Positions 26,789 to 60,292 of a DNA stretch of 64,000 nucleotides are shown one piece after another. The position numbers were made by a program, and so were the translations under genes. Within the stretch, counting starts at the first letter, position 1; each line of letters starts with the position of its first letter. This DNA comes from an uncultured Acidobacteriota bacterium. GTDB lineage: Bacteria > Acidobacteriota > Vicinamibacteria > Vicinamibacterales > CAVVIG01. The stretch lies in NCBI GenBank assembly GCA_963748265.1, contig CAVVIG010000009.1:332661-396660 (forward strand), given 5' to 3'. The notes beneath the pieces are model-generated. The model was not told where the DNA came from. It searched no databases and saw only the letters and a list, made by a program, of their open reading frames with translations.

Positions 26789-27963
26789 CAGATCACGCCT
26801 TCGTGTCCGAAGGGCGGCGACCTGTGCGCCCGCATCCCGAGATCGCCGGTCAGCACCGCTTCGGTGTGCTGGCCGAGCGTCGGCGGCGGCGTGCGGATCG
26901 ACGCCGGCGTGTCCGACAGTTTCAGCGGCGTGCCCAGCACCCGCAGCGCTCCGGCGGCTGTGTTCGAGCTCGGCCATCATCTCGCGGGCCGCCATCTGCG
27001 GGTCGGCGAACAGTTCGTGCAGATCGCGCACCGAACCGCACGGTACCCTGCGGCCTGTCAGCCGCTCGATCCAGTGCGCGCGTGGCGGTCGCGAGCCGCG
27101 CGTCGAGGGCGGGCTTGAGCTCGGCGTAGCCGCGTCACGCGGTGCCGGTTGGTCGCGAACCGCTCGTCGGCGCGATGCCGGCCGCGCCGCAGAACCGCCG
27201 CCACTGCTCGTCGTTGCCGACCGCGATGACGAAGTCGCCGTCCGAGGCCGGGAACGTCTCGTAGGGCACGATGGTCGGATGGCGGTTGCCCAGACGCGGC
27301 GGCGCGGCGCCGGTCGCGAAATAGATGCCCGCCTGATAGGTCAGCAGCGCCGACGACCGAATCGAGCATCGCGATGTCCACTGCCTGGCCCCGCCCGGTC
27401 CGTTCGCGCGCGAAGAGCGCCGCCGTGATGCCCTGTGCGGCGAACATGCCGGAGACGATGTCGGCGATGGCGACGCCGAGGCGAAACGGCGGGCCGTCGG
27501 CGCTGCCCGTGATGCTCATCAGGCCGCCTTCGGCCTGCATCACCGCGTCGTAGCCGGGTTCCTTGCGGCGCGGCCCCGTCTGGCCGAACCCGGAGATCGA
27601 GCAGTAGACGAGCCGCGGGTGTGTTCGGCGAGCGACGCGTAGTCCAGGCCGAGCTTCGCGAGCGTCCCGGGCCTGAAGTTCTCGACGATCACGTCGGCGC
27701 GCTGCGATGAGCCGATCGAGGACGGCGCGCCCCTCGGGCTCCTTGAAGTCGAGCGTCACGCTTTCCTTGTTGCGGTTGATGCTCAGGAAGTACGCGCTCT
27801 CGCCCTGCCGAAACGGCGGGCCCCACGCGCGCGTGTCGTCGCCCTTGCCCGGCTGTTCGACTTTGATCACGCGCGCGCCCATGTCGGCGAGCATCATGGT
27901 GCAATACGGCCCCGACAGCACACGGGTGAGGTCGAGAACCGTGATACCGTGCAGTGGAGTCAT
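26789..27963 (-). CDS. Family III CoA-transferase (CaiB/BaiF family); reading frame broken at least 4 times
   Basis: MTPLHGITVLDLTRVLSGPYCTMMLADMGARVIKVEQPGKGDDTRAWGPPF...ESAYFLSINRNKESVTLDFK / LVYCSISGFGQTGPRRKEPGYDAVMQAEGGLMSITG..GPPFRLGVAIADIVSGMFAAQGITAAL / C-terminal LHELFADPQMAAREMM... Confidence 0.75.
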
Positions 27964-27984
27964 AGAAAGTGCGACTAGTATGAC

Positions 27985-28060
27985 ATCAGGGATCAGGGAT
28001 CGGCGGATCAAGGATCGGGATCGGCGATTAGATATTGCGACTCGAGCGATTAGCGATTAG
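27985..28060. repeat. Intergenic short tandem repeats: (GGGATCA/GGATCGG)n followed by (GCGATTA)3
   Basis: Directly visible: ATCAGGGATCAGGGATCGGCGGATCAAGGATCGGGATCGGCGATTAGATATTGCGACTCGAGCGATTAGCGATTAG. Positions 27985-28003 are the exact reverse complement of 54698-54716. Confidence 0.8.
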
Positions 28061-28066
28061 AGGCTT

Positions 28067-28790
28067 ATGCATCGACTGTCGGCGATGATCCTTGGCTGGA
28101 GTCTGGCGTGCGCGTCCCCGCGCTTGCCCAGGACCCCGCCGCTGTCCCTCCGGTGCCGACGATCGTCACGACCGGAGAGGCGATCATCCGGCGCGCGCCC
28201 GATCAGGCGTTCGTGACGGTCGCCGTCGAGACCCGCGCGAAGAACGCCGCGGGAGGCCCAGCAGCAGAACGCCGAAGCCATGACGGCCGTGCAGCAGCGC
28301 GTCGCCGCCGCCGGCCTTCCGCAAGGACGCCGTCCGGACCACCGGCTACACCATCCAGCAGGAGTTCGACTTTGCGAATGGCCGACGCGATGCCGCGCGG
28401 ATACCTGGCGCGGAACGGCCTCGAGAGTGCGCGTCGACGACGTCGAACGCACCGGCGACGTGCTCGACGCGCTGGTCAGGCGGGCGCCACGATCTATCAC
28501 CGGCGTGCGTTTCGATCTGAAGGATCGAGCGGCCGCCGAACGCGAGGCGCTGCGCCTCGCGGTGGCCGACGCGCGCGGCCGCGCCGAGGCCATCGCGGCC
28601 GGTGCCGGCCGCACGGTCGACCGGGTGCTCCGGATCGAAGATTCGCCGCAGTCCGACGCTGCCGCCGATGCTGGCCGACGATCGCCATGCTGCAGCGATG
28701 CGGCCGCTGCGGCGCCGGACGACGCCGATCGAGCCGGGGCACGATCGAGATTCGCGCGCAGGTCGACGCTCGACGGTCTCGATCAAGTGA
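28067..28790 (+). CDS. SIMPL-domain (DUF541, 26-kDa periplasmic immunogenic protein-like) secreted protein; reading frame broken at least 5 times
   Basis: MHRLSAMILGWSLA.. (signal-like) / VPTIVTTGEAIIRRAPDQAFVTVAVETRAKN / MTAVQQRVAAAGLP / VRVDDVERTGDVLDALV / ITGVRFDLKDRAAAEREALRLAVADARGRAEAIAAGAGRTVDRVLRIED / TPIEPG..IEIRAQV...VSIK*. Confidence 0.65.
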
Positions 28791-28821
28791 CCGGACACGA
28801 ACACCTCGTCTAGATGCTGCG

Positions 28822-34966: not shown

Positions 34967-35033
34967 ATCGCGAATCGCGAATTTGCAATCAGCGATGTGG
35001 CAATCAGACAATGTAGTCTGCACTGGCGATTAG
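34967..35033. repeat. iscS-iscU spacer stutter repeats
   Basis: ATCGCGA x2 in tandem (34967-34980), GCAATCAG x2 (34985-34992 and 35000-35007), and GGCGATTAG (35025-35033; the same 9-mer occurs at 28023-28031). Confidence 0.7.
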
Positions 35034-39275: not shown

Positions 39276-39282
39276 AGAAGTG

Positions 39283-39330
39283 AGAACTGAGCACTTAGAA
39301 CTCAGAACTTAGTACCAAGAGAGTCAAGAA
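39283..39330. repeat. iscX-mqnB spacer stutter repeats (AGAACT x3, CTTAG x2, CAAGA x2)
   Basis: AGAACTGAGCACTTAGAACTCAGAACTTAGTACCAAGAGAGTCAAGAA. This stretch is strikingly AT-rich for the genome. Confidence 0.6.
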
Positions 39331-39339
39331 CGCTGTCCC

Positions 39340-40014
39340 GTGCGTGTTCTGGTTGTTGCCGCGACCCGTGGTGAGGTGGCGCCGCTCATCGACGCACGTC
39401 GGTCGCCTTCGGGAGACGAGCGGATGCTGCAGGGGATCGTCGGGACGCACCGCACCGACATCCTGATCACGGGCGTCGGCATGGTCGCCACTGCCGTGTG
39501 GTGTGCCAGGGCGCTGACCGCCGAACGCTACGACCTGGCAATCAACCTTGGCGTCTGTGGCAGCTTCAACTCCGCGCTGCCGCCGCCGGCTGCCGTGCAC
39601 GTCACCAGCGACATGTTTCCCGAACTTGGCGTCGAGGACGGCTCGCGCTTCGTTGCGTTGGACGAGGTCGGGCTGCTCGATCGGGACGCCTTTCCGTTCA
39701 GCGGCGGCCGCCTCGTGAACCCTGCGCCGCCTGCGTTGCCCGGGCTCGCCGACCTGCCCACCGCGTCCGGCATCACCGTAAACACTGTGCACGGCGACGA
39801 CGCATCGATTGCAGCGGTGGTGAGCCGCTGCGCCCCGGACGTGGAGTCGATGGAAGGCGCCGCGTTCGCCTACGCGTGCCTCGTCGCCGACGTTTCGTAC
39901 GCCCAGGTCCGCGCCGTATCGAACAGGGTCGAGCGCCGCAACCGCGCCGCGTGGGACCTGAAGGGCGCCATCGAGCAGCTCGGCGCCGTCTCATTGAAGC
40001 TGCTCAGCTCATGA
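39340..40014 (+). CDS. mqnB: Futalosine hydrolase
   Basis: Intact 224 aa: MRVLVVAATRGEVAPL...ILITGVGMVATAVWCA...GVCGSF...VESMEGAAFAYAC...VRAVSN (PNP/UDP-phosphorylase fold, MqnB pattern). It is adjacent to mqnD. Confidence 0.8.
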   Translation: MRVLVVAATRGEVAPLIDARRSPSGDERMLQGIVGTHRTDILITGVGMVATAVWCARALTAERYDLAINLGVCGSFNSALPPPAAVHVTSDMFPELGVEDGSRFVALDEVGLLDRDAFPFSGGRLVNPAPPALPGLADLPTASGITVNTVHGDDASIAAVVSRCAPDVESMEGAAFAYACLVADVSYAQVRAVSNRVERRNRAAWDLKGAIEQLGAVSLKLLSS

Positions 40015-40024
40015 CCTGACTTGC

Positions 40025-40051
40025 GACTTGTGACTGACGACTTGTGACTGA
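40025..40051 (+). repeat. Exact 13-nt direct repeat GACTTGTGACTGA x2 (period 14) spanning the mqnD start codon
   Basis: 40025-40037 and 40039-40051 are identical. The second copy contains the mqnD GTG (40044). The first copy contains an equivalent GTG (40030) that opens a 5-codon mini-ORF. Confidence 0.8.
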
Positions 40052-40883
40052 GGACCTGCGACTCTCATTTTCACCTTGTCCGAACGACTGCTTCATGTTC
40101 GATGCGATCGTCAACCGCCGCATCGAGCTGGACGGGTTGTCGTTCACGCCGCACCTTGCCGACATCGAGGCCCTGAACCGTGCGGCGTTCGCGGGGGCCG
40201 CGGACGTCACGAAGATCAGCTACTACGCGTACGCGCACTGCCGGCGCGACTACGCGCTGCTCGACGCCGGGAGCGCGCTCGGCCGGAACTGCGGGCCGCT
40301 CCTGATTTCTGCGCGGCCGATCACGATCGACGAAGTCCGCCACGGCGACCTGCGGATCGCGATCCCCGGCGTCTACACCACCGCGAACTTCCTGCTCGGC
40401 GTCGCGTTTCCGGAGGTCCGCGACCGCACGCCGCTCGTGTTCTCGGACATCGAGCAGGCGCTCCTCGCCGGCCGATTCGACGCCGGCGTCATCATTCACG
40501 AGAACCGTTTCACCTACGAGGCGAAGGGGCTGCACCGCATCGCCGATCTGGGGGAAATCTGGGAGCGTGAGACCGGCGCGCCGATCCCGCTCGGCGCAAT
40601 TGCAGTCAGGCGTTCGCTCCCGGACAGCGTGAAGCAGCAGATCAACCGGCTGGTCCGGCAGAGCGTGGAGTACGCGTTCGCGCACCGCAATGCGAGCCTG
40701 CCCTACGTCCGCGCGCATGCCCAGGAGATGGACGAGGCGGTCATGTACCAGCACATCGACCTGTACGTGAACGACTACTCGGTCGATCTCGGCGACGAGG
40801 GGCGCCGCGCGGTCACGACGCTCTTCGACCGGGCGGCGAACCTCGACCTCGTACCTGTCTCCCCCGAGCCGCTCTTCTTGTAG
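40044..40883 (+). CDS. mqnD: 1,4-dihydroxy-6-naphthoate synthase
   Basis: Intact 279 aa: LRLSFSPCPNDCFMFDAIV...IAIPGVYTTANFLL...GVIIHENRFTYE (the SPCPND signature of MqnD). Confidence 0.8.
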   Translation: MTEDLRLSFSPCPNDCFMFDAIVNRRIELDGLSFTPHLADIEALNRAAFAGAADVTKISYYAYAHCRRDYALLDAGSALGRNCGPLLISARPITIDEVRHGDLRIAIPGVYTTANFLLGVAFPEVRDRTPLVFSDIEQALLAGRFDAGVIIHENRFTYEAKGLHRIADLGEIWERETGAPIPLGAIAVRRSLPDSVKQQINRLVRQSVEYAFAHRNASLPYVRAHAQEMDEAVMYQHIDLYVNDYSVDLGDEGRRAVTTLFDRAANLDLVPVSPEPLFL

Positions 40884-49573: not shown

Positions 49574-50361
49574 GCGGCACGACCGTCAGGTGGCCAGCGC
49601 GAGGGTGGAGCTGCACGTCGGCGTCGATGCCGTACAGCGCGCGGATGTTGGCGGGCGTGAGCGTCTGGTCAGGCGAACCTTGCGCGAGCACGCGCCCGCG
49701 TTCGAGGAGCACGATGTGCTGGCACAGCGACGCGGCGAGGTTCAGGTCGTGCGTTGACACCACCATCGTCGTGCGGCGTTCCTCGTTCAGCCGCCGCAGC
49801 AGCGCGGCGATCTCGAACTGGTACCGCAGGTCGAGCGCAGTGGTTGGCTCGTCGAGCAGGAGGACGTCGGACGACTGCGCGAGCGCGCTCGCGATGACGA
49901 CGCGCTGCTTCTCGCCTCCGCTCAGCGTGGCGAACGGCCGATGTTCGAACTCGCGATGTTCCGGTGACGCGCAGCGCTTCCCTCGCGATCTCCAGGTCAC
50001 GAGGGCCTTCGAGCTCGAACGGGCCCAGGTGCGGATACCGCCCCATGAGCACCATTTCGATCGCGCTGAAGTCGAACGTGCCGCGCGTTTCCTGGGCGAC
50101 GACCGCGAGCCTTCGTGCGAGCTCGCGGCGGCCCATCCGCCCGATCGCGCGGCCGTCGAGCAGCACGTCGCCCGAACGGGGTGGCAGGACGCCCGCCATA
50201 AGCCGCAGCAGCGTCGTCTTGCCGGAGCCGTTCGGGCCGAGCAGACCGACGATTGACCCGCGGGCGACCGTGAGCGTCGCGTTGGACAGGACAGCCGGCG
50301 CGTCCGGCGTGCGCCCGTATCCGAACGTGACGTCACGAACCTGCAGGATGGCGTCGGTCAT
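49557..50361 (-). CDS. btuD: ABC transporter ATPase (BtuD/FecE-like); one frameshift near 49960
   Basis: LLGPNGSGKTTLLRLMAG (Walker A)...VVAQE... / LSGGEKQRVVIASALAQSSDVLLLDEPTTALDLRYQ (signature and Walker B)...VSTHDLNLA. Confidence 0.8.
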
Positions 50362-50367
50362 CGCACC

Positions 50368-52597
50368 TCAGAACTCGACGCGCACCCCGGCACGCGCCGC
50401 GCGGCCAAGCGCCGTGTAGCCGAGCGGCTGCTGGTACTGCCGGTCGGCGAGGTTGTCGACGGCCACCAGCGCGACGATCTGCGGAGCGAGGCGCCACGAC
50501 GCTCTGGCATCCCACGTTGCCCAGCCCGGGTTTTCGACGATTGGTGGTTCGAGCGACGAGAAGTCGCTGTCGACGAAACTGCCGATGAACGTGCCGGTCA
50601 CGTCGAAAGCAAGCCGCCGCCAGTTCCACGAGCCCTGGACGAACCCCGAGTGACGCGGCCGCCTGAACGCCGCGTTGCCGACGGCGAATACCGGGCTGAA
50701 CTCCGACGTGCTCTCGAGGATCTCGGAGGTGAGGAACGTATAGCCGCCGCGCAGGCGCAGCGCTTCGGTCGGTGCGACCTCCGCGCCGAACTCGGCGCCG
50801 CTCGCGCTGGTGAGCCCCACGTTCACGTACTGCGAGTTGCTGCCGCCGGTCGATCGCAGGCCGATGATGTTGCGGAACTCGTTGTCGAACCAGGTGACGT
50901 CCAGCTTCACGCGGTCGGAGCCCATGCGCTGCTCGATCCCGACCTCGAACGACCGCGATCGCTCCGGCTTCAGGTCCGGGTTGCCGAGGAAAAACGGCGA
51001 GAGGCTGAAGCTCTGAATGAGCGTCGGCTCCTTGATGCCGAGACCGGCTGCGGCGCGGATGCGGGTGTCGCCGACGCTGCCGCTGCGTTCGCGCAGCGCG
51101 TACACGACCGAGGCGCGTGGGACGGCCGCGACACCAAAGCTCTCGTTGTTCTCGATGCGGCCGCCGACGGAGGTGGAGAGCTTGCCGAGCAGCATCTGAT
51201 GCTGCACGGCGACGCCGAAGTTGTCGCGCGACGGATTCGTGAGCTCGCCGCTCATCAGGTCCTCGAGCTCGGCGCGCTCCCCCGTCCAGTCCGCGAGCGC
51301 CGACACCAGGTGCGTGCCCGCGCGCGGCGACGTCGCGAGGCGCCAGTCCGCCTGGTAGCTCGCGTAGTGGCGGCGCAGCCGGTTGCGGGTGTCGAACGTG
51401 AAGTCGTACCACTCGAACGGCGACGTCGACTCGCCGTAGGTCGGCGTGTACGGCGGATCGGCCACGAGGTTCACCGACGCCTGGTTCGTTCGGCCGTTCG
51501 AGTAGGTTGCGCGCTGCCGGAACGCCCGCGTCACCTGCTGATCGAAGGTGACGCCCAGGGCCACGAGGTTCTGCTCGAAGTAGGCGTCGAGATCGGGACG
51601 GCCGTACTCGGTCTGCCCGGGGGTGCCGGTCTTGCCGAGTTCGCCGCGCACGACGCCGCGCAGAGTGGTCCGCTCGTTGATGGCCGCGCCGACGGTCGCC
51701 GAGAGCGTGGTGTTGTCGAACGCGCTGTTCGGGACGCGGTTGTCGGTCGAGGTACTGCGCTGCTGCGAGCGAGTAGTCCCACAGCCCGGCGGCGCCAGAC
51801 GCGGACGCGGTTGCGTGCAGGGTGCCGTACGAACCGCCGTCGATCTGTCCGGATATCCGCGGACCGGCGTCGGCCGCCGATCCCCGTTTCGTGAACAGCT
51901 GCACGACGCTCGACATCGCGTCGGAGCCGAAGAGCGCCGAGTGCGCGCCGCGCACCACTTCCACGCGTTCGAGGTTCTCGGTCGTCAGGTTGGCGAAGTT
52001 GAAGGCGCCGCCCGGCTCGTTGAGCGGGATGCCGTCGAGCAGCACCGTGTTGTAGTTGCTCTCGCCGCCGCGCACGAACAGGCTGGTCACACCGCCGGGC
52101 GCGCCGGTCTGGACGATCGCGGCGCCCGGCGAGGTCCGCATCAGGTCCACGACGAGGGGCGCCTGACGCCTCGATATGTCCTCCGCGGTAAACGTCGTCG
52201 TTGCGACGCCCACCTGGCTCGAAGGCACCTCGGTCCTCGTGGCGGTGACGACGACGGTCTCTTCGACCGGTGCGATCGGCAGCTGGATGCGGAGCGGGCT
52301 GGTGGAGCAGGGGACGCGGGTGGAACGGAATCCGGCCAGCGACGCCTCGATCTCGCAGCGCTCCGGGAGGTCCAGCGTGAAGCGGCCGGCTTCGTCGGCG
52401 AAGATGTCTGCGGTGTTTCCGGTCGTGGCTGGGCTGACGATCCGGACGCGCGCGCGCGGCAGCGGGCGGCCGTTCTGGTCGACGACGACGCCGTCGGCGG
52501 CGAGCGCGGGTAGTGACGAAATGGCCATGAACAGGCAGGCCAGCAGCAGGCGACTGGGACGGCGGGCGAGTGCCCGGCCGGGGCGAAGGAATGGCAT
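50368..52597 (-). CDS. btuB: TonB-dependent receptor (BtuB-type by context) with N-terminal CarboxypepD_reg-like domain; reading frame broken at least 3 times
   Basis: MPFLRPGRALARRPSRLLLACLFMAISSLPALA (signal); GVVVDQNGRPLPRARVRIVS...; plug: ETVVVTATRTEVPSSQVGVATTTFTAEDI...VDLMRTSPGAAIVQTGAPGGVTSLFVRGGESNYNTVLLDGIPLNEPGG...NLERVEVVRGAHSALFGSDAMSSVVQLFTK. The barrel end is ...GYTALGRAARAGVRVEF*. Confidence 0.8.
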
Positions 52598-52599
52598 CA

Positions 52600-52835
52600 G
52601 TGCTCCTCTCGGCGTCTCACGCGCCGAAAAAGGACGCCCCCGGATAGGCCAGGTTTCCTGACTTGCGGATTGCGGCGGCACCCCGTGTCTTCCCAGACGA
52701 TCGTGTCGCCCAGTGACGTGTGTGGCGGTCGGGTCTTCAGACCCGCCGTCCTGGAGTGTCGCTAGCCGCTGACAGTGGCGGGACCGTGTGGGATTTGCAC
52801 CCACTTCGCGTGGCCGCCGGGGCGAGCGTCAAGTT
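52600..52835 (-). promoter_or_regulatory. Cobalamin (B12) riboswitch in the btuB leader
   Basis: The reverse strand reads ...GCGAAGUGGGUGCAAAUCCCACACGGUCCCGCCACUGUCAGCGG...CACUGGG...CUGGGAAGAC...CAAGUCAGGAAACCUGGCC... This is the conserved GGUG-AAAUCC-CACGG-CCCGCCACUGU core plus the B12 box (AGUCAGGAAACCUGGCC). A TATAGT -10-like hexamer sits at rc 52844-52849, and the RBS GAGAGGAG lies just before the ATG. Confidence 0.8.
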
Positions 52836-53504: not shown

Positions 53505-54616
53505 ATGCTGTCCCGCCTCCGCACCGCAGGCCTTGCTGACATCGCCGAGAAGCTCGACGCGCGTGTCCGGCTCGACCTGGCGGATGGCGTGCGGCTGTTC
53601 GACGCGCCCGACCTGCTCGCCGTCGGCTGGCTCGCGAACCGCGAGCGCGAGCGGTTGCACGCGGGCGCGCACCTACTACAACTACAACATCAGGCTCGAG
53701 GCGACGAACGTGTGCGTCGCCAGCTGCCTGTTCTGCTCGTTCGCGCGTCTGAAGCCGGGCGATACGGGCGCTTACACGATGTCGCTCGACGAAGCCTGGA
53801 ACAAGCTGCGGCAGCGCAGCCACCAGCCGCTCACCGAGGTCCACGTCGTCAACGGGCTGCATCCCGATCTGCCGTTCGACTACTACACGGAGCTGCTGCG
53901 CGGCTTCAAGCGGATCCGCCCGGGCATTCACCTGAAGTGCTTTACCGCGGTCGAGATCGCGTTCTTCGCGGATCTCTACGGGAAGACCGACGAGCAGGTG
54001 CTCGTGGAGCTGCGCGAAGCCGGGCTCGACTCGCTCCCCGGCGGCGGCGCGGAGATCTTCGCGCCGAGCGGTGCGCAAGAAGCTGGCGGCCGACAAGTGC
54101 GATGCGGATCGCTACCTGGCCATTCACCGCACCGCGCACCGCCTCGGCATGCGCACGAACGTGACGATGTTGTACGGGCACATCGAGACGAGCGAAGAAC
54201 GGGTGGATCACATGCTGCGCTCCCGCGCGCTGCAGGACGAGACGGGCGGATTCCAGGCGTTCATCCCGCTCGCGTTTCACCCGGACCACAACCAGATGCG
54301 CAAGCTGCCGGCGCCGACCGCGACCGATTCGCTGCGCGTGCACGCGGTCGCCCGGCTGGTGCTCGACAACATCCCGCACATCAAGGCGTACTGGATCGCG
54401 ACCGGCGTCGACGTCGCGCAGACCGCGCTCTGGTTCGGCGTGGACGATCTCGACGGCACCGTGCAGGAAGAGACGATCTACCACATGGCCGGGGCGAAGA
54501 CGCCGAACGCCATGACGCCCCGCCAGCTCGAACGCCTGATTACCGCCGCCGGCCGCGAGCCGCTCGAGCGCGACACGCTCTACAACGTCATCAGATCCAG
54601 CGCCGTCGCGAGCTGA
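53505..54616 (+). CDS. Radical-SAM futalosine-pathway enzyme (MqnE aminofutalosine synthase / MqnC cyclase family); 2 frameshifts
   Basis: LADGVRLFDAPDLLAVGWLANRERERLH / TYYNYNIRLEATNVCVASCLFCSFARLKPGDTGAYTMSLDE (C-x3-C-x2-C)...VHVVNGLHPDLPFDYYTELLRGFK...HLKCFTAVEI / TNVTMLYGHIETSEERVDHML..LQDETGGFQAFIPLAFHP. MqnC and MqnE cannot be separated by eye. Confidence 0.75.
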
Positions 54617-54676
54617 CGCGAAGGCTGCAGGCTGCAGAGTTCTGCTGTCTGCCCCCGCCTGCGCCAACTGAGCTGC

Positions 54677-54717
54677 CTGATCCCCGCTTACTGATCCCCG
54701 ATCCCTGATCCCTGATC
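54677..54717. repeat. Intergenic tandem repeats (CTGATCC/CGATCC)n upstream of nadA
   Basis: CTGATCCCCGCTTACTGATCCCCGATCCCTGATCCCTGATC. Positions 54698-54716 are the exact reverse complement of 27985-28003. Confidence 0.8.
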
Positions 54718-54737
54718 TCGGGCGATATACTGAAGGT

Positions 54738-55898
54738 GTGACGATGCTTCCGGTCCTCACGGAGTACGAGAAGAGCCACCTGTCCGAGCGGCAGGCGCTG
54801 CCGGATAAGTACGTCGGCTTGTCGGACATCGAGATGGACGCGCGCATCCAGGCGGCGAAGGCCGCCCTCGGCTCCAGGCTCGTCATCCTCGGCCATCACT
54901 ACCAGCGCGACGAGGTGATCAAGTTCGCCGACTACACCGGCGACTCCTACAAGCTCTCGAAGCAGGTCGCGAACCACCCGGACGCCGAGTTCATCGTCTT
55001 CTGCGGCGTGCACTTCATGGCGGAGAGCGCCGACGTGCTCAGCGGGCCGCAGCAGCAGGTGATCCTGCCGGACCTCGCAGCCGGGTGCTCGATGTCCGAC
55101 ATGGCCGATCCCGAACAGCTCGAGATCTGCTGGCGCGAGCTCGGGCAGATGGGCGTGATCGAACCGACGCCGGAGGGCGCGCTCGCGTCGGTGATTCCCG
55201 TCACCTACATCAACTCGTCGGCGGCCATCAAAGCCTTCGTCGGCGAACGCGGCGGCGTCGTCTGCACGTCGTCGAACGCTGCGGCCACGCTGCGCTGGGC
55301 GTGGGAGCGCGGCGAGCAGATCCTGTTCCTGCCCGATCAGCACCTCGGGCGGAACACCGCCTACAAGATGGGCGTGCCGCTCGACGAGATGGTGGTGTGG
55401 GATCCGAACGAGGCGTGGGGCGACCTGGAGCCGGAGGCAGTGAAGCGCGCGCGCATCATCCTCTGGAAGGGGCACTGCTCGGTCCACACGCGCTTCACGG
55501 TGCGGCAGATTGAACAGCTGCGTCAGCAGCATCCCGGCATCCGCGTGATCGTCCACCCGGAAGTGCCGTGGGAAGTCGTGCAGGCCGCTGATGATTCGGG
55601 ATCGACCGAGTACATCATCAACCAGGTGAAGTCGAGCCCGGCCGGCTCGGTCTGGGCTGTCGGCACCGAGGTGCACCTCGTGAACAGGCTCGCTGAGCAG
55701 GTGGCGCCTTCGAAGACCGTCCACTCCCTGGATCAGTTCGGCTGCCTGTGCTCGACGATGTTCCGCGTCTCGCCGAATCATCTGGTGTGGGTGCTCGAAG
55801 GGCTACTCGCCGGCGAGGTCCACAATCGCATCGTCGTCCCCGAGGAGCAGAAGCACTGGAACCGGGTGGCGCTCGATCGCATGTTGTCGATCCGCTAG
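54738..55898 (+). CDS. nadA: Quinolinate synthase (long form)
   Basis: Intact 386 aa: [27 protein letters not shown]...[16 protein letters not shown]...CSMSDMA...[13 protein letters not shown]...VCTSSNA...[13 protein letters not shown]...[12 protein letters not shown]...GSTEYII. The start may be ATG 54744. Confidence 0.9.
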
Positions 55899-56568: not shown

Positions 56569-56581
56569 TTTTGCCTTCTGG

Positions 56582-56598
56582 CTTCGGGTCATCCGAAG
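56582..56598 (+). terminator. Short hairpin after sodA (weak terminator candidate)
   Basis: CTTCGG-gtcat-CCGAAG lies 14 nt after the sodA stop. No U-tract is present. Confidence 0.25.
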
Positions 56599-56611: not shown

Positions 56612-56740
56612 TGTGGGTTGCACCGCGGTCCGGATCCTGTGCAATGCCAGACTGCGAACCGCGTCAGGGCCGGAAGGCAGCAGCGCTAAGCAGACCCTGA
56701 CATGTGCCGCAGGTTCTTCCGGATCGCGGTGCAGCCCACG
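56612..56740 (+). ncRNA. ffs: Signal recognition particle RNA (small bacterial 4.5S type)
   Basis: The domain IV core GUCAGGGCCGGAAGGCAGCAGCG..AAGCAGACCCUGAC matches the E. coli 4.5S core GUCAGGUCCGGAAGGAAGCAGCC. The closing helix pairs CCGCGGUCCGGA (56623-56634) with UCCGGAUCGCGG (56718-56729), and UGGGUUGCA with UGCAGCCCA. It occupies the classic position immediately upstream of dnaX. Confidence 0.75.
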
Positions 56741-58911: not shown

Positions 58912-58975
58912 TTCGAGATCTTCGTGACGTGCGCTTCGCCTTCAGATTATCGATTGACGATTGAAGAATAACGAT
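58912..58975. repeat. ybaB-recR spacer repeats (TTCGAG-TCTTCGTGAC motif, then CGATT x4)
   Basis: TTCGAGATCTTCGTGAC (58912-58928) is nearly identical to TTCGAGTCTTCGTGAG at 60277-60292. It is followed by GATTATCGATTGACGATTGAAGAATAACGATTCGA. Confidence 0.65.
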
Positions 58976-58980
58976 TCGAC

Positions 58981-59577
58981 GTGTCCCTCCCAGAGCCTCT
59001 GATCCGCCTGATCGAAGAGCTGCAGCGCCTGCCCGGCATCGGCCCCAAGGGCGCGCAGCGGCTCGCGTTTCACGTGCTGAAGGCGCCGCGCGAGCAGGCC
59101 GAGAAGCTTGCGGCGGCGATCCACGAGCTGAAGGATCGCGTCACCTACTGTTCGGTGTGCAACAGCATCACCGACATCGACCCGTGCGCGTTCTGCACGA
59201 GCCCGGACCGCGACCGTCACCTGGTCTGCGTTGTCGAAGAGCCGCAGAACGTCTCGGGGATCGAGAGGACGCGCGAGTTCAAGGGGACCTATCACGTGCT
59301 GATGGGCGCCATCTCGCCGCTGCAGGGCATCGGGCCCGACGAGTTGAAGATCAAGGGGCTCGTCGCACGGATCGGCGAGGGGCAGATTACGGAGGTCATC
59401 CTCGCGACGAACCCGAACGTCGAAGGGGAGACGACCGCGCTGTATCTCGCGCGCCTGCTGAAGCCACTTGGCGTCAAGGTGACGCGCATCGCCGTCGGCG
59501 TGCCGGTCGGCAGCGATCTCGAGTACGCCGACGAGTGGACCATGCACAAGGCGCTCGAGGGGCGGCGCGAGGTCTGA
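58981..59577 (+). CDS. recR: Recombination protein RecR
   Basis: [22 protein letters not shown]...[16 protein letters not shown] (zinc finger)...[28 protein letters not shown] (Toprim)...[12 protein letters not shown]. Confidence 0.9.
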
Positions 59578-60197: not shown

Positions 60198-60292
60198 GTC
60201 ACGAAGCCCACGAAGCCACGAAATCCAATCAGCCTGGCGCGAACCTGGCAACACACCCGATAGGACTCTTCGTGACTTCGAGTCTTCGTGAG
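60198..60292. repeat. Inverted/tandem CACGAAG / CTTCGTG repeat set upstream of osmC
   Basis: GTCACGAAG-CC-CACGAAG-C-CACGAAA (60198-60223) and CTTCGTGAC-TTCGAG-TCTTCGTGAG (60268-60292). GTCACGAAG and CTTCGTGAC form a perfect 9-bp inverted repeat separated by 61 nt. Confidence 0.7.

Follow-up and report, generated by a model that had tools for sequence, protein, structure and literature searches.

A 19-mer shared by two gene spacers of a Vicinamibacterales bacterium probably reflects the overlap of independent tandem GGGATCR arrays

A 19-nt sequence, ATCAGGGATCAGGGATCGG, occurs exactly at 27985-28003 on the plus strand and at 54698-54716 on the minus strand of a 64,000-nt stretch of contig CAVVIG010000009.1 (the window, meaning this whole stretch; 68% G+C) from an uncultured bacterium that its NadA homologues place in the Vicinamibacterales, phylum Acidobacteriota. 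The first copy (site 1) lies upstream of a CoA-transferase family III gene and the second (site 2) upstream of nadA. We consider it probable that the two copies are the overlap of two independent, slippage-driven tandem arrays of the heptamer GGGATCR (YGATCCC on the opposite strand). These arrays would fall within the known class of intergenic heptanucleotide simple sequence repeats (SSRs), which includes the short tandemly repeated repetitive (STRR) sequences and the long SSRs (LSSRs), and would be closest to the G-rich GGGAATC and GGGGAYT arrays of Xanthomonas and Nostoc. The class itself is already known; what is new here is the unit GGGATCR and the phylum Acidobacteriota.

In 100 dinucleotide shuffles, the 19-mer found no match with up to three mismatches, so that none is expected by chance. 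This agrees with the initial annotation, which had reported the repeat at exactly these coordinates and had judged a chance recurrence very unlikely. Both copies had also been described as parts of longer heptamer stutters, and the stutters then quoted are correct: Tandem Repeats Finder (TRF) calls a period-7 array of 5.4 copies at site 1 (27985-28022, where period 21 x 2 is also called) and one of 6.0 copies at site 2 (54676-54717). The repeats of the two spacers are as follows.

27985-28024, G-rich strand plus: heptamer array of site 1, ATCA GGGATCA GGGATCG GCGGATCA AGGATCG GGATCG G, containing the 19-mer
54676-54719, G-rich strand minus: heptamer array of site 2, on the plus strand CCTGATC CCCGCTTA CTGATCC CCGATCC CTGATCC CTGATCTC, containing the 19-mer
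28024-28060, plus strand: second stutter of the site 1 spacer, with GCGATTAG at 28024, 28046 and 28053, the last two in tandem with period 7

Outside the array, the two sites have no sequence in common; after ...CCCTGAT, they continue with GTCATACT and CTCGGGCGATATACT. The site 2 array is also present in an independent metagenome contig (L001; comparison loci are cited by such numbers), and it is therefore not an assembly artefact. The two copies had been said to share one orientation relative to the downstream gene, which holds for the CoA-transferase gene and nadA. However, the site 1 spacer separates divergent genes, and the array also lies 43 nt upstream of the plus-strand SIMPL/DUF541 start (ATG 28068), relative to which its orientation is opposite. 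As reported earlier, the site 1 spacer contains three copies of the short sequence GCGATTAG, and a fourth lies at 35026. These four matches compare with 1.1 expected, and 4 of 100 shuffles reach four; the excess is weak, and the copy at 35026 has no significance alone.

The 19-mer represents one case of a genome-wide habit rather than a discrete element, because other spacers of the window hold heptamer arrays in excess. At least five of them carry 7-nt arrays of units other than GGGATCR, and six period-7 arrays of at least 3.8 copies were counted in the window, whereas 20 dinucleotide shuffles averaged 0.55 and never exceeded 2. Three of these arrays, together with a stem-loop near site 2, are listed here.

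39276-39312, plus strand: (AGAACTG/GAGCACT) x 5 array called by TRF, directly 3' of the stop of a Fer2/Fe-S_assembly gene
40018-40063, plus strand: (GACTTGY) x 6 array inside the PNP>MqnA junction, containing the likely GTG start (40044) of an MqnA-like gene
58951-58981, plus strand: (CGATTGA) x 4 array abutting the GTG start of recR
54618-54664, plus strand: stem-loop just 3' of the stop of a radical-SAM (CofH-like) gene, partly an (AGGCTGC)2 stutter at 54622-54637

Furthermore, the iscS-iscU spacer contains stutters of ATCGCGA and GCAATCAG, and 8-mer stutters occur at 60200 and 60267. When counted by eye, about 8 of 12 arrays include a stop codon in the sense unit, and since 7 mod 3 = 1, the stops of such an array fall in all three frames. 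As a feature of the arrays, this is suggestive only.

The comparison of orthologous junctions showed how quickly the arrays change. Synteny around nadA, whose upstream neighbour at site 2 is the CofH-like radical-SAM gene, is kept in six related contigs, while the CofH>nadA spacer is variable among them.

L001 (97% NadA identity): a C-rich array as in the window, but lacking one 7-nt unit and carrying substitutions inside the array
L002: (GGGATCA)n immediately behind the stop, followed by (CGATCCC)n, a convergent inverted pair forming a long hairpin (z = -3.2)
L003: (CCAACCT)4
L206: a degenerate CGATCCC array
L207: no array

A comparison of copy number between strains or reads had been proposed in the initial annotation, and the window and L001 do differ by one 7-nt unit. 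Two other junctions behave in a similar way. YbaB>RecR measures 2-3 nt in L205 and L206; the window has (CGATTGA)n there, L003 has (GACTTGY)n and L207 has (GAGCACT)n. At the PNP_UDP_1>MqnA-like junction, the two genes overlap as ATGA in L003 (755-770), L206 (1046-1049) and L207 (864-867), and L205 holds a CT-rich stutter; in the window (40012-40063), (GACTTGY)n is inserted there, and the MqnA-like frame opens at GTG 40044 within the array, whereby the N-terminus changes from MTLSLGFSPCPND to MTEDLRLSFSPCPND. The array now seems to supply the start codon of this gene. Fast birth, death and whole-unit resizing of this kind is the behaviour of a microsatellite and not that of a conserved operator.

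To describe their position relative to genes, 61 arrays of 57 Acidobacteriota loci and, in addition, both window copies were each oriented by the G-rich strand. Genes were called with a codon-usage model trained on the same loci with the arrays masked, which is crude but left/right symmetric. The median gap to the open reading frame (ORF) was 9 nt on the 5' side of the G-rich strand and 75 nt on the 3' side. The left gap was the smaller one in 35 arrays and the larger one in 14 (binomial p = 0.004, Wilcoxon p = 0.0006). Separated by side and by the direction of the neighbouring gene, the arrays fall into four groups.

L+, G-rich strand sense, right after a stop: n = 32, median gap 2 nt
L-, G-rich strand antisense, before a start: n = 27, median gap 19 nt
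R-, G-rich strand antisense, after a stop: n = 26, median gap 42 nt
R+, G-rich strand sense, before a start: n = 29, median gap 111 nt

Co-directional gene pairs flank 40 of 51 arrays, and inverted partners were found on the 3' side of the G-array in five cases and on its 5' side in one. Both window copies follow the rule, with the array nearest to the ORF at the 5' end of the G-rich strand. Other heptamer arrays, oriented by G-skew, showed no positional bias (32 vs 32). By the initial annotation, its claim would fail if genome-wide copies had no bias in position or orientation relative to genes, or if the repeat ended a known mobile element. The claim withstands this check: such a bias is present in these 61 acidobacterial arrays, and no mobile-element context was found.

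The occurrence of the unit in other genomes was assessed by a scan for (GGGATCR)2GGGATC in one genome per species. The matches listed comprise at least 119 loci, distributed as follows.

Acidobacteriota (Vicinamibacterales, Acidobacteriaceae, Sulfopaludibacter): 57
Pseudomonadota: 13
Chloroflexota: 12
Cyanobacteria, mostly heterocystous: 11
Planctomycetota: 8
other groups: 18

Among the matches listed, the cyanobacterial arrays include those of Fischerella, Westiellopsis, Pelatocladus and Nostochopsis. Acidobacteriota account for no more than a few per cent of the collection's species. GGGATCR arrays are thus not lineage-specific, yet strongly enriched in Acidobacteriota, and of the "lineage-specific repeat family" first proposed, the repeat family is real while the restriction to one lineage does not hold. 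The preference for seven nucleotides is not a property of this unit alone: with GGGATC units excluded, TRF called 37 arrays of period 7 in the Acidobacteriota pool, compared with 6, 8 and 5 arrays of periods 6, 8 and 9, respectively. Array density can far exceed that of the window, as seen in an 8-kb locus of an Acidobacteriaceae metagenome-assembled genome (L083, CAWKEG010000009.1) with thirteen arrays of heptamers or 14-mers; most have units with AGCT or CAGTG, and several are adjacent inverted pairs. In the searchable literature, neither a tandem GGGATCR unit nor a link of heptamer repeats with Acidobacteria was found.

The closest counterparts are the intergenic G-rich heptamers GGGAATC of Xanthomonas and GGGGA(C/T)T of Nostoc PCC 7120 (Rehm et al. 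2015, PMC4692102). These arrays lie nearest to the ORF 5' of the G-rich strand regardless of its direction, and they show convergent pairs, a peak at four units, variation in length and sequence between relatives and no link with gene function (PMC4692102). The GGGATCR unit likewise has 7 nt, consisting of G3 and 4 nt that contain ATC, and its arrays are mostly situated between co-directional ORFs, with the same closeness to the 5' ORF, the same convergent inverted pairs and the same copy-number peak at four. In contrast to the published set, the unit is GGGATCR and not GGGAATC, the host belongs to the Acidobacteriota (Vicinamibacterales), which lie outside that paper, the window copies miss the canonical G-quadruplex (G4) motif, and many non-G-rich heptamer families coexist. 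In addition, site 1 lies between divergent genes, a position under-represented among the published arrays. The initial annotation had found no known type to which the repeat could be assigned; it does match a published class, including its positional rule.

The initial annotation had also set the repeat apart from repetitive extragenic palindromes (REP), bacterial interspersed mosaic elements (BIME) and miniature inverted-repeat transposable elements (MITE), which is borne out, as neither a palindrome nor terminal inverted repeats (TIR) were found. Like the GGGATCR arrays, these elements are short, dispersed, intergenic and multi-copy. However, they are imperfect palindromes or bounded by TIR, whereas the GGGATCR arrays consist of head-to-tail 7-nt units with no unique core. 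A further counterpart is provided by the STRR heptanucleotides of heterocystous cyanobacteria, reportedly described by Mazel et al. in 1990. Here too, a few specific heptamers recur as short tandem arrays across the spacers of one genome, but the units (CCCCAAT, TTGGTCA, CAACAGT) and the phylum are different, and the genomes are low in GC. To our knowledge, no orientation rule has been reported for STRR.

TAACTGA direct repeats have been described in intergenic regions of marine Beggiatoaceae, cyanobacteria and Bacteroidetes (MacGregor 2015, PMC4679880). As in the window, 2-6 copies lie just upstream of starts without canonical ribosome-binding sites, the downstream genes are unrelated, and the window array at 39276 (GAGAACT, GAGCACT, TAGAACT) resembles the TAACTGA unit. 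By contrast, TAACTGA is a single dominant unit and was proposed as the site of a post-transcriptional regulator (PMC4679880), whereas many different units occur in the window, and stop codons precede about half of the GGGATCR arrays. In a general survey of LSSRs, Mrazek et al. (2007) reportedly found heptanucleotides to be the most abundant class, especially in large, high-GC genomes of non-pathogens, and reportedly attributed their excess to slippage linked to the polymerase footprint.

Intergenic heptanucleotide repeats have been known since 1990 as STRR and, reportedly, as the dominant long SSR class since 2007; they are still without an accepted function or origin. The present data widen the phenomenon to a major, uncultured-rich soil phylum, in which Vicinamibacterales are rich in heptamer arrays and follow the same unexplained polarity rule as Xanthomonas and Nostoc, and orthologous junctions with and without arrays offer material for comparison. 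They also indicate that, where relatives have a tight junction, a heptamer array can introduce a spacer and even a start codon. For annotation, two warnings follow: 19-mers of this kind are array overlaps and not regulatory motifs, and starts beside arrays are easily miscalled.

The initial annotation had combined the repeat with the adjacent promoter-like elements. The genes and hexamers next to both sites are listed below.

27061-27963, minus strand: CoA-transferase family III gene, ATG 27963 without a Shine-Dalgarno (SD) sequence, stopping at profile position 290 of 366
28068-28813, plus strand: divergent SIMPL/DUF541 gene, ATG 28068 preceded by AGAGG, frame broken, Pfam match only from ORF 28280
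54744-55898, plus strand: nadA (quinolinate synthase), 97% identity to P0001, Pfam PF02445
27977-27982, minus strand: -10-like hexamer CATACT after TGT (extended -10-like), 13 nt upstream of the CoA-transferase ATG 27963
54726-54731, plus strand: -10-like hexamer TATACT, 12 nt before ATG 54744 and 6 nt before GTG 54738

Both hexamers and their spacings are as first described, and no SD sequence was found before ATG 27963, in line with the earlier statement that none is convincing. In both window arrays, the C-rich strand is the sense strand, and the array ends 2-8 nt upstream of the hexamer. TATACT is invariant in four aligned nadA orthologues and is also present in L205, L206 and L207. Before the CoA-transferase homologues L125, L126 and L130 (63-67% identity), GTCATACTAG..GCAC is kept without an array, and the motif GGTCATACTAGCTGCAC (TGTCATACTAGTCGCAC at 27967-27985 of the window, minus strand) lies 8-13 nt before the ATG of homologues in this same identity range (also given as 8-10 nt). 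Many other CoA-transferase homologues carry GACGATAATCAT..CATTATG or CCAGTATAGTCCAGGAGCATG upstream. These upstream motifs resemble -10-only promoters with short leaders that would be widespread, possibly along with an operator. A metagenome scan for the CoA-transferase gene returned only relatives of 54-83% identity, none of them with the array, and a protein search gave no homologue between 100% and 73% identity.

In the pooled loci, TAnnnT was observed 6-14 nt upstream of called starts in about 12% of genes, compared with a background of about 4.5%, and an SD peak was seen too. Of 21 arrays upstream of starts, 11 lead, when read in the sense direction, into a -10-like hexamer, then 6-13 nt, then the start codon (TAnnnT in eight, GATAAT, GATACT or CATACT in three), a count made by eye and without a control. 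Neither window spacer contains a sigma-70 -35/-10 pair or an intrinsic terminator, or gives an Rfam match even at E <= 10. The array was also rejected as a -35 element, as no TTGACA-like hexamer lies at 16-18 bp. A nadA-motif NAD+ riboswitch precedes nadA in Acidobacteria; such a riboswitch was considered here and rejected, with no Rfam match at E <= 10 in 54500-54850. We infer that both genes may be transcribed from promoters without a -35 box and with short leaders that lack an SD sequence, the array occupying the -35 position. Because relatives have the hexamer and the short leader but no repeat, repeat and promoter are separable. Of the promoter/short-leader module proposed earlier, it therefore stands that the repeat adjoins promoter-like elements, whose hexamers look real since they are kept in orthologues or homologues, but not that the repeat is a part of them.

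Frameshift-like breaks were noticed in both genes that flank site 1, and other gene calls of the window are also fragmentary. The 301-aa CoA-transferase product is identical to P0121, and because the same product is on record in NCBI/ENA, the breaks belong to the assembly as deposited. They probably stem from indel errors of long reads, or the genes are pseudogenes.

If the arrays belong to the heptanucleotide SSR class, slipped-strand mispairing during replication would create and resize them, and they would persist where they are harmless. Strand-specific costs would then filter their orientation: immediately behind a stop, a G-rich sense sequence may be tolerated, whereas immediately ahead of a start it would not be, and a C-rich sense sequence may. 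Any effect on expression would be compositional or structural, the arrays most likely not being sequence-specific operators. Candidate effects would come from unstructured RNA, rich in C and poor in G, within read-through transcripts, from runs of G in the template strand or from spacing changes of 7 bp. Before a start without an SD sequence, unstructured C-rich sense RNA might be harmless or helpful, or it might act as a Rho-loading site for read-through transcripts.

Several points weigh against this account. The repertoire of units is restricted across about 14 arrays in 170 kb of six relatives, and units recur at non-orthologous junctions. An identical 17-mer, GACTTGCGACTTGTGAC, is found at 40018-40034 of the window (PNP>MqnA) and at about 14262-14280 of L003 (YbaB>RecR), GGGATCR occurs twice in the window, and GAGCACT/GAGAACT is common to the window at 39276 and L207 at 14593, compared with about 0.06 exact unit coincidences expected. 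Neither pure local slippage nor the STRR literature explains this restricted repertoire. Moreover, the orientation rule implies that selection or a polar mechanism acts on the arrays, so that an absence of function is not established; the rule itself was measured on a cross-species sample with a crude home-made gene caller and not on the source genome. Finally, nadA has an SD-like GAAGGTG 5 nt before its ATG, which would be upstream of a transcript from TATACT, and the -10 assignments of both genes are putative, as they are read from the sequence.

A different account, which we regard as quite unlikely, is that an active, lineage-wide process installs a few specific heptamers (GGGATCR, GACTTGY, GAGCACT and others) at gene boundaries with fixed polarity, thereby splitting ATGA junctions and supplying starts. 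Its consequence would be SD-independent initiation, or insulation through Rho or G4. If true, it would also explain the cyanobacterial STRR and the Xanthomonas arrays.

It is unlikely that the arrays act through a G4 or i-motif. According to this explanation, which was proposed for GGGAATC/GGGGAYT, the G-rich strand (the template for both genes), or its RNA after a stop, would fold into a G4 and modulate transcription or mRNA stability. A unit of G3 plus a 4-nt loop is indeed that of Rehm et al. (2015, PMC4692102), whose arrays also show the same positional rule and convergent inverted pairs, and the canonical motif fits 54 of the 61 sampled acidobacterial arrays. The copy number peaks at four (3, 4 and 5 units in 13, 19 and 13 arrays, respectively), and G4-aware folding predicts a G4 for a perfect (GGGATCA)4. 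However, neither window copy is canonical, as site 1 has three G3 tracts only and site 2 needs a 10-nt loop, and the same folding predicts GAUC:GAUC hairpins and no G4 for both. Most other heptamer arrays are not G-rich (AGAACTG, GACTTGY, CGATTGA, CCAACCT), so that G4 leaves the phenomenon as a whole unexplained, and the original authors found no regulatory role (PMC4692102).

As a Rho-loading insulator resembling a Rho utilization (rut) site, the array would be carried as C-rich, G-poor, unstructured sequence on read-through RNA, where Rho would load and stop transcription, whether from upstream or antisense, just ahead of the promoter of the gene itself. Such a role appears improbable. The sense-strand C/G ratio reaches 2.1-2.2 over 78 nt at both sites (99.8-99.9th percentile of all windows), the sense RNA is predicted to be unpaired (site 1 z = +0.9; site 2 array unpaired after a hairpin), neither spacer has an intrinsic terminator, and the sense strand of the nadA spacer stays C-rich despite the change of unit (TGATCCC; CCAACCT in L003). 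Against this, the evidence is one of composition only, the arrays (40-45 nt) are shorter than a typical rut site, and L207 is without an array at the orthologous site. In addition, half of the family (L+) has a G-rich sense strand after stops, which insulation would explain via antisense transcripts only.

Very unlikely is the idea of a protein-binding array or promoter module, as first suggested, in which a regulator or a sigma/RNA polymerase contact would recognise the tandem heptamers upstream of the -10 element. It is consistent with the same orientation and placement of both copies 2-8 nt upstream of the hexamer, with the same layout in 11 of 21 similar arrays of other Acidobacteriota, and with the restricted unit repertoire, which could reflect recognition. 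But the unit is not kept at the orthologous nadA promoter: it is replaced by CCAACCT in L003, absent in L207 and degenerate in L001 and L206, and the copy number in L001 is different. A transcription-factor operator or iteron was rejected on these grounds. Furthermore, copy number and register to the -10 hexamer vary, arrays are about as frequent right after stops (32 L+ vs 27 L-), the CoA-transferase -10 motif is kept in array-less homologues, the heptamer offers no good -35 at 16-18 bp, and the downstream genes are functionally unrelated.

That the repeat is the terminus of a mobile element (MITE, REP/BIME or insertion sequence (IS) end), or a product of chance or assembly, is scarcely credible: the exact 19-mer at two distant sites and the frameshift-like breaks in the assembly could be cited for it, but nothing common extends beyond the array, there are no TIR or target duplications, the unit has no REP-like palindrome, fold z-scores are near 0, an independent metagenome contig has the array at the orthologous place, and the chance expectation is 0. 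Specifically, REP/BIME was rejected in the absence of a 20-40 nt inverted repeat (site 1 fold z +0.9 and +0.35; site 2 array unpaired), and a MITE or IS end because the likeness between sites 1 and 2 stops at the array edge. Two other candidates were rejected as well. A phase-variable contingency locus, in which the SSR would sit within an ORF or between -35 and -10 of a surface or host-interaction gene, does not fit arrays that lie upstream of the -10 hexamer of nadA and a CoA-transferase gene, and a CsrA sponge (GGA motifs) does not fit site 2, where GGA is on the antisense strand, or the other units, which are without GGA.

Some neighbouring elements were observed in the same loci. L003 (9935-9990), L205 (9845-9870) and L207 (9945-9990), all without the TGATCCC array, have a conserved block upstream of nadA, GGGAATAGCC..GGTGTTATACTT. 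In L205, about 135 nt are inserted between TATACT and the nadA start, comprising a terminator-like hairpin (CCAAGCC..GCTTGGCTTTTT) and a 13-nt tandem repeat. After the sod stop, inverted pairs of 7-8-nt arrays form hairpins in L002 (11934-12013), L003 (11850-11915) and L206 (11900-11945). Their units differ by lineage (AAGGCAGC/TGCCTTCA, GAACGCAG/CTGCGTT and GGCAGGCAGC/GCCTGCC), with the purine-rich arm always first, and the window keeps the second arm only (TTTTGCCTTCTGGCTTCGG, 56569-56587).

Two other RNA elements were identified in the window. A cobalamin riboswitch (Rfam RF00174, 59 bits) is located at 52654-52807 on the minus strand, ahead of a TonB-dependent receptor ORF (50333-52804). 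The bacterial small signal recognition particle (SRP) RNA (RF00169, 75 bits) lies at 56628-56727 on the plus strand between sod and dnaX; in all relatives, it is the conserved part of a sod>dnaX spacer that is variable elsewhere.

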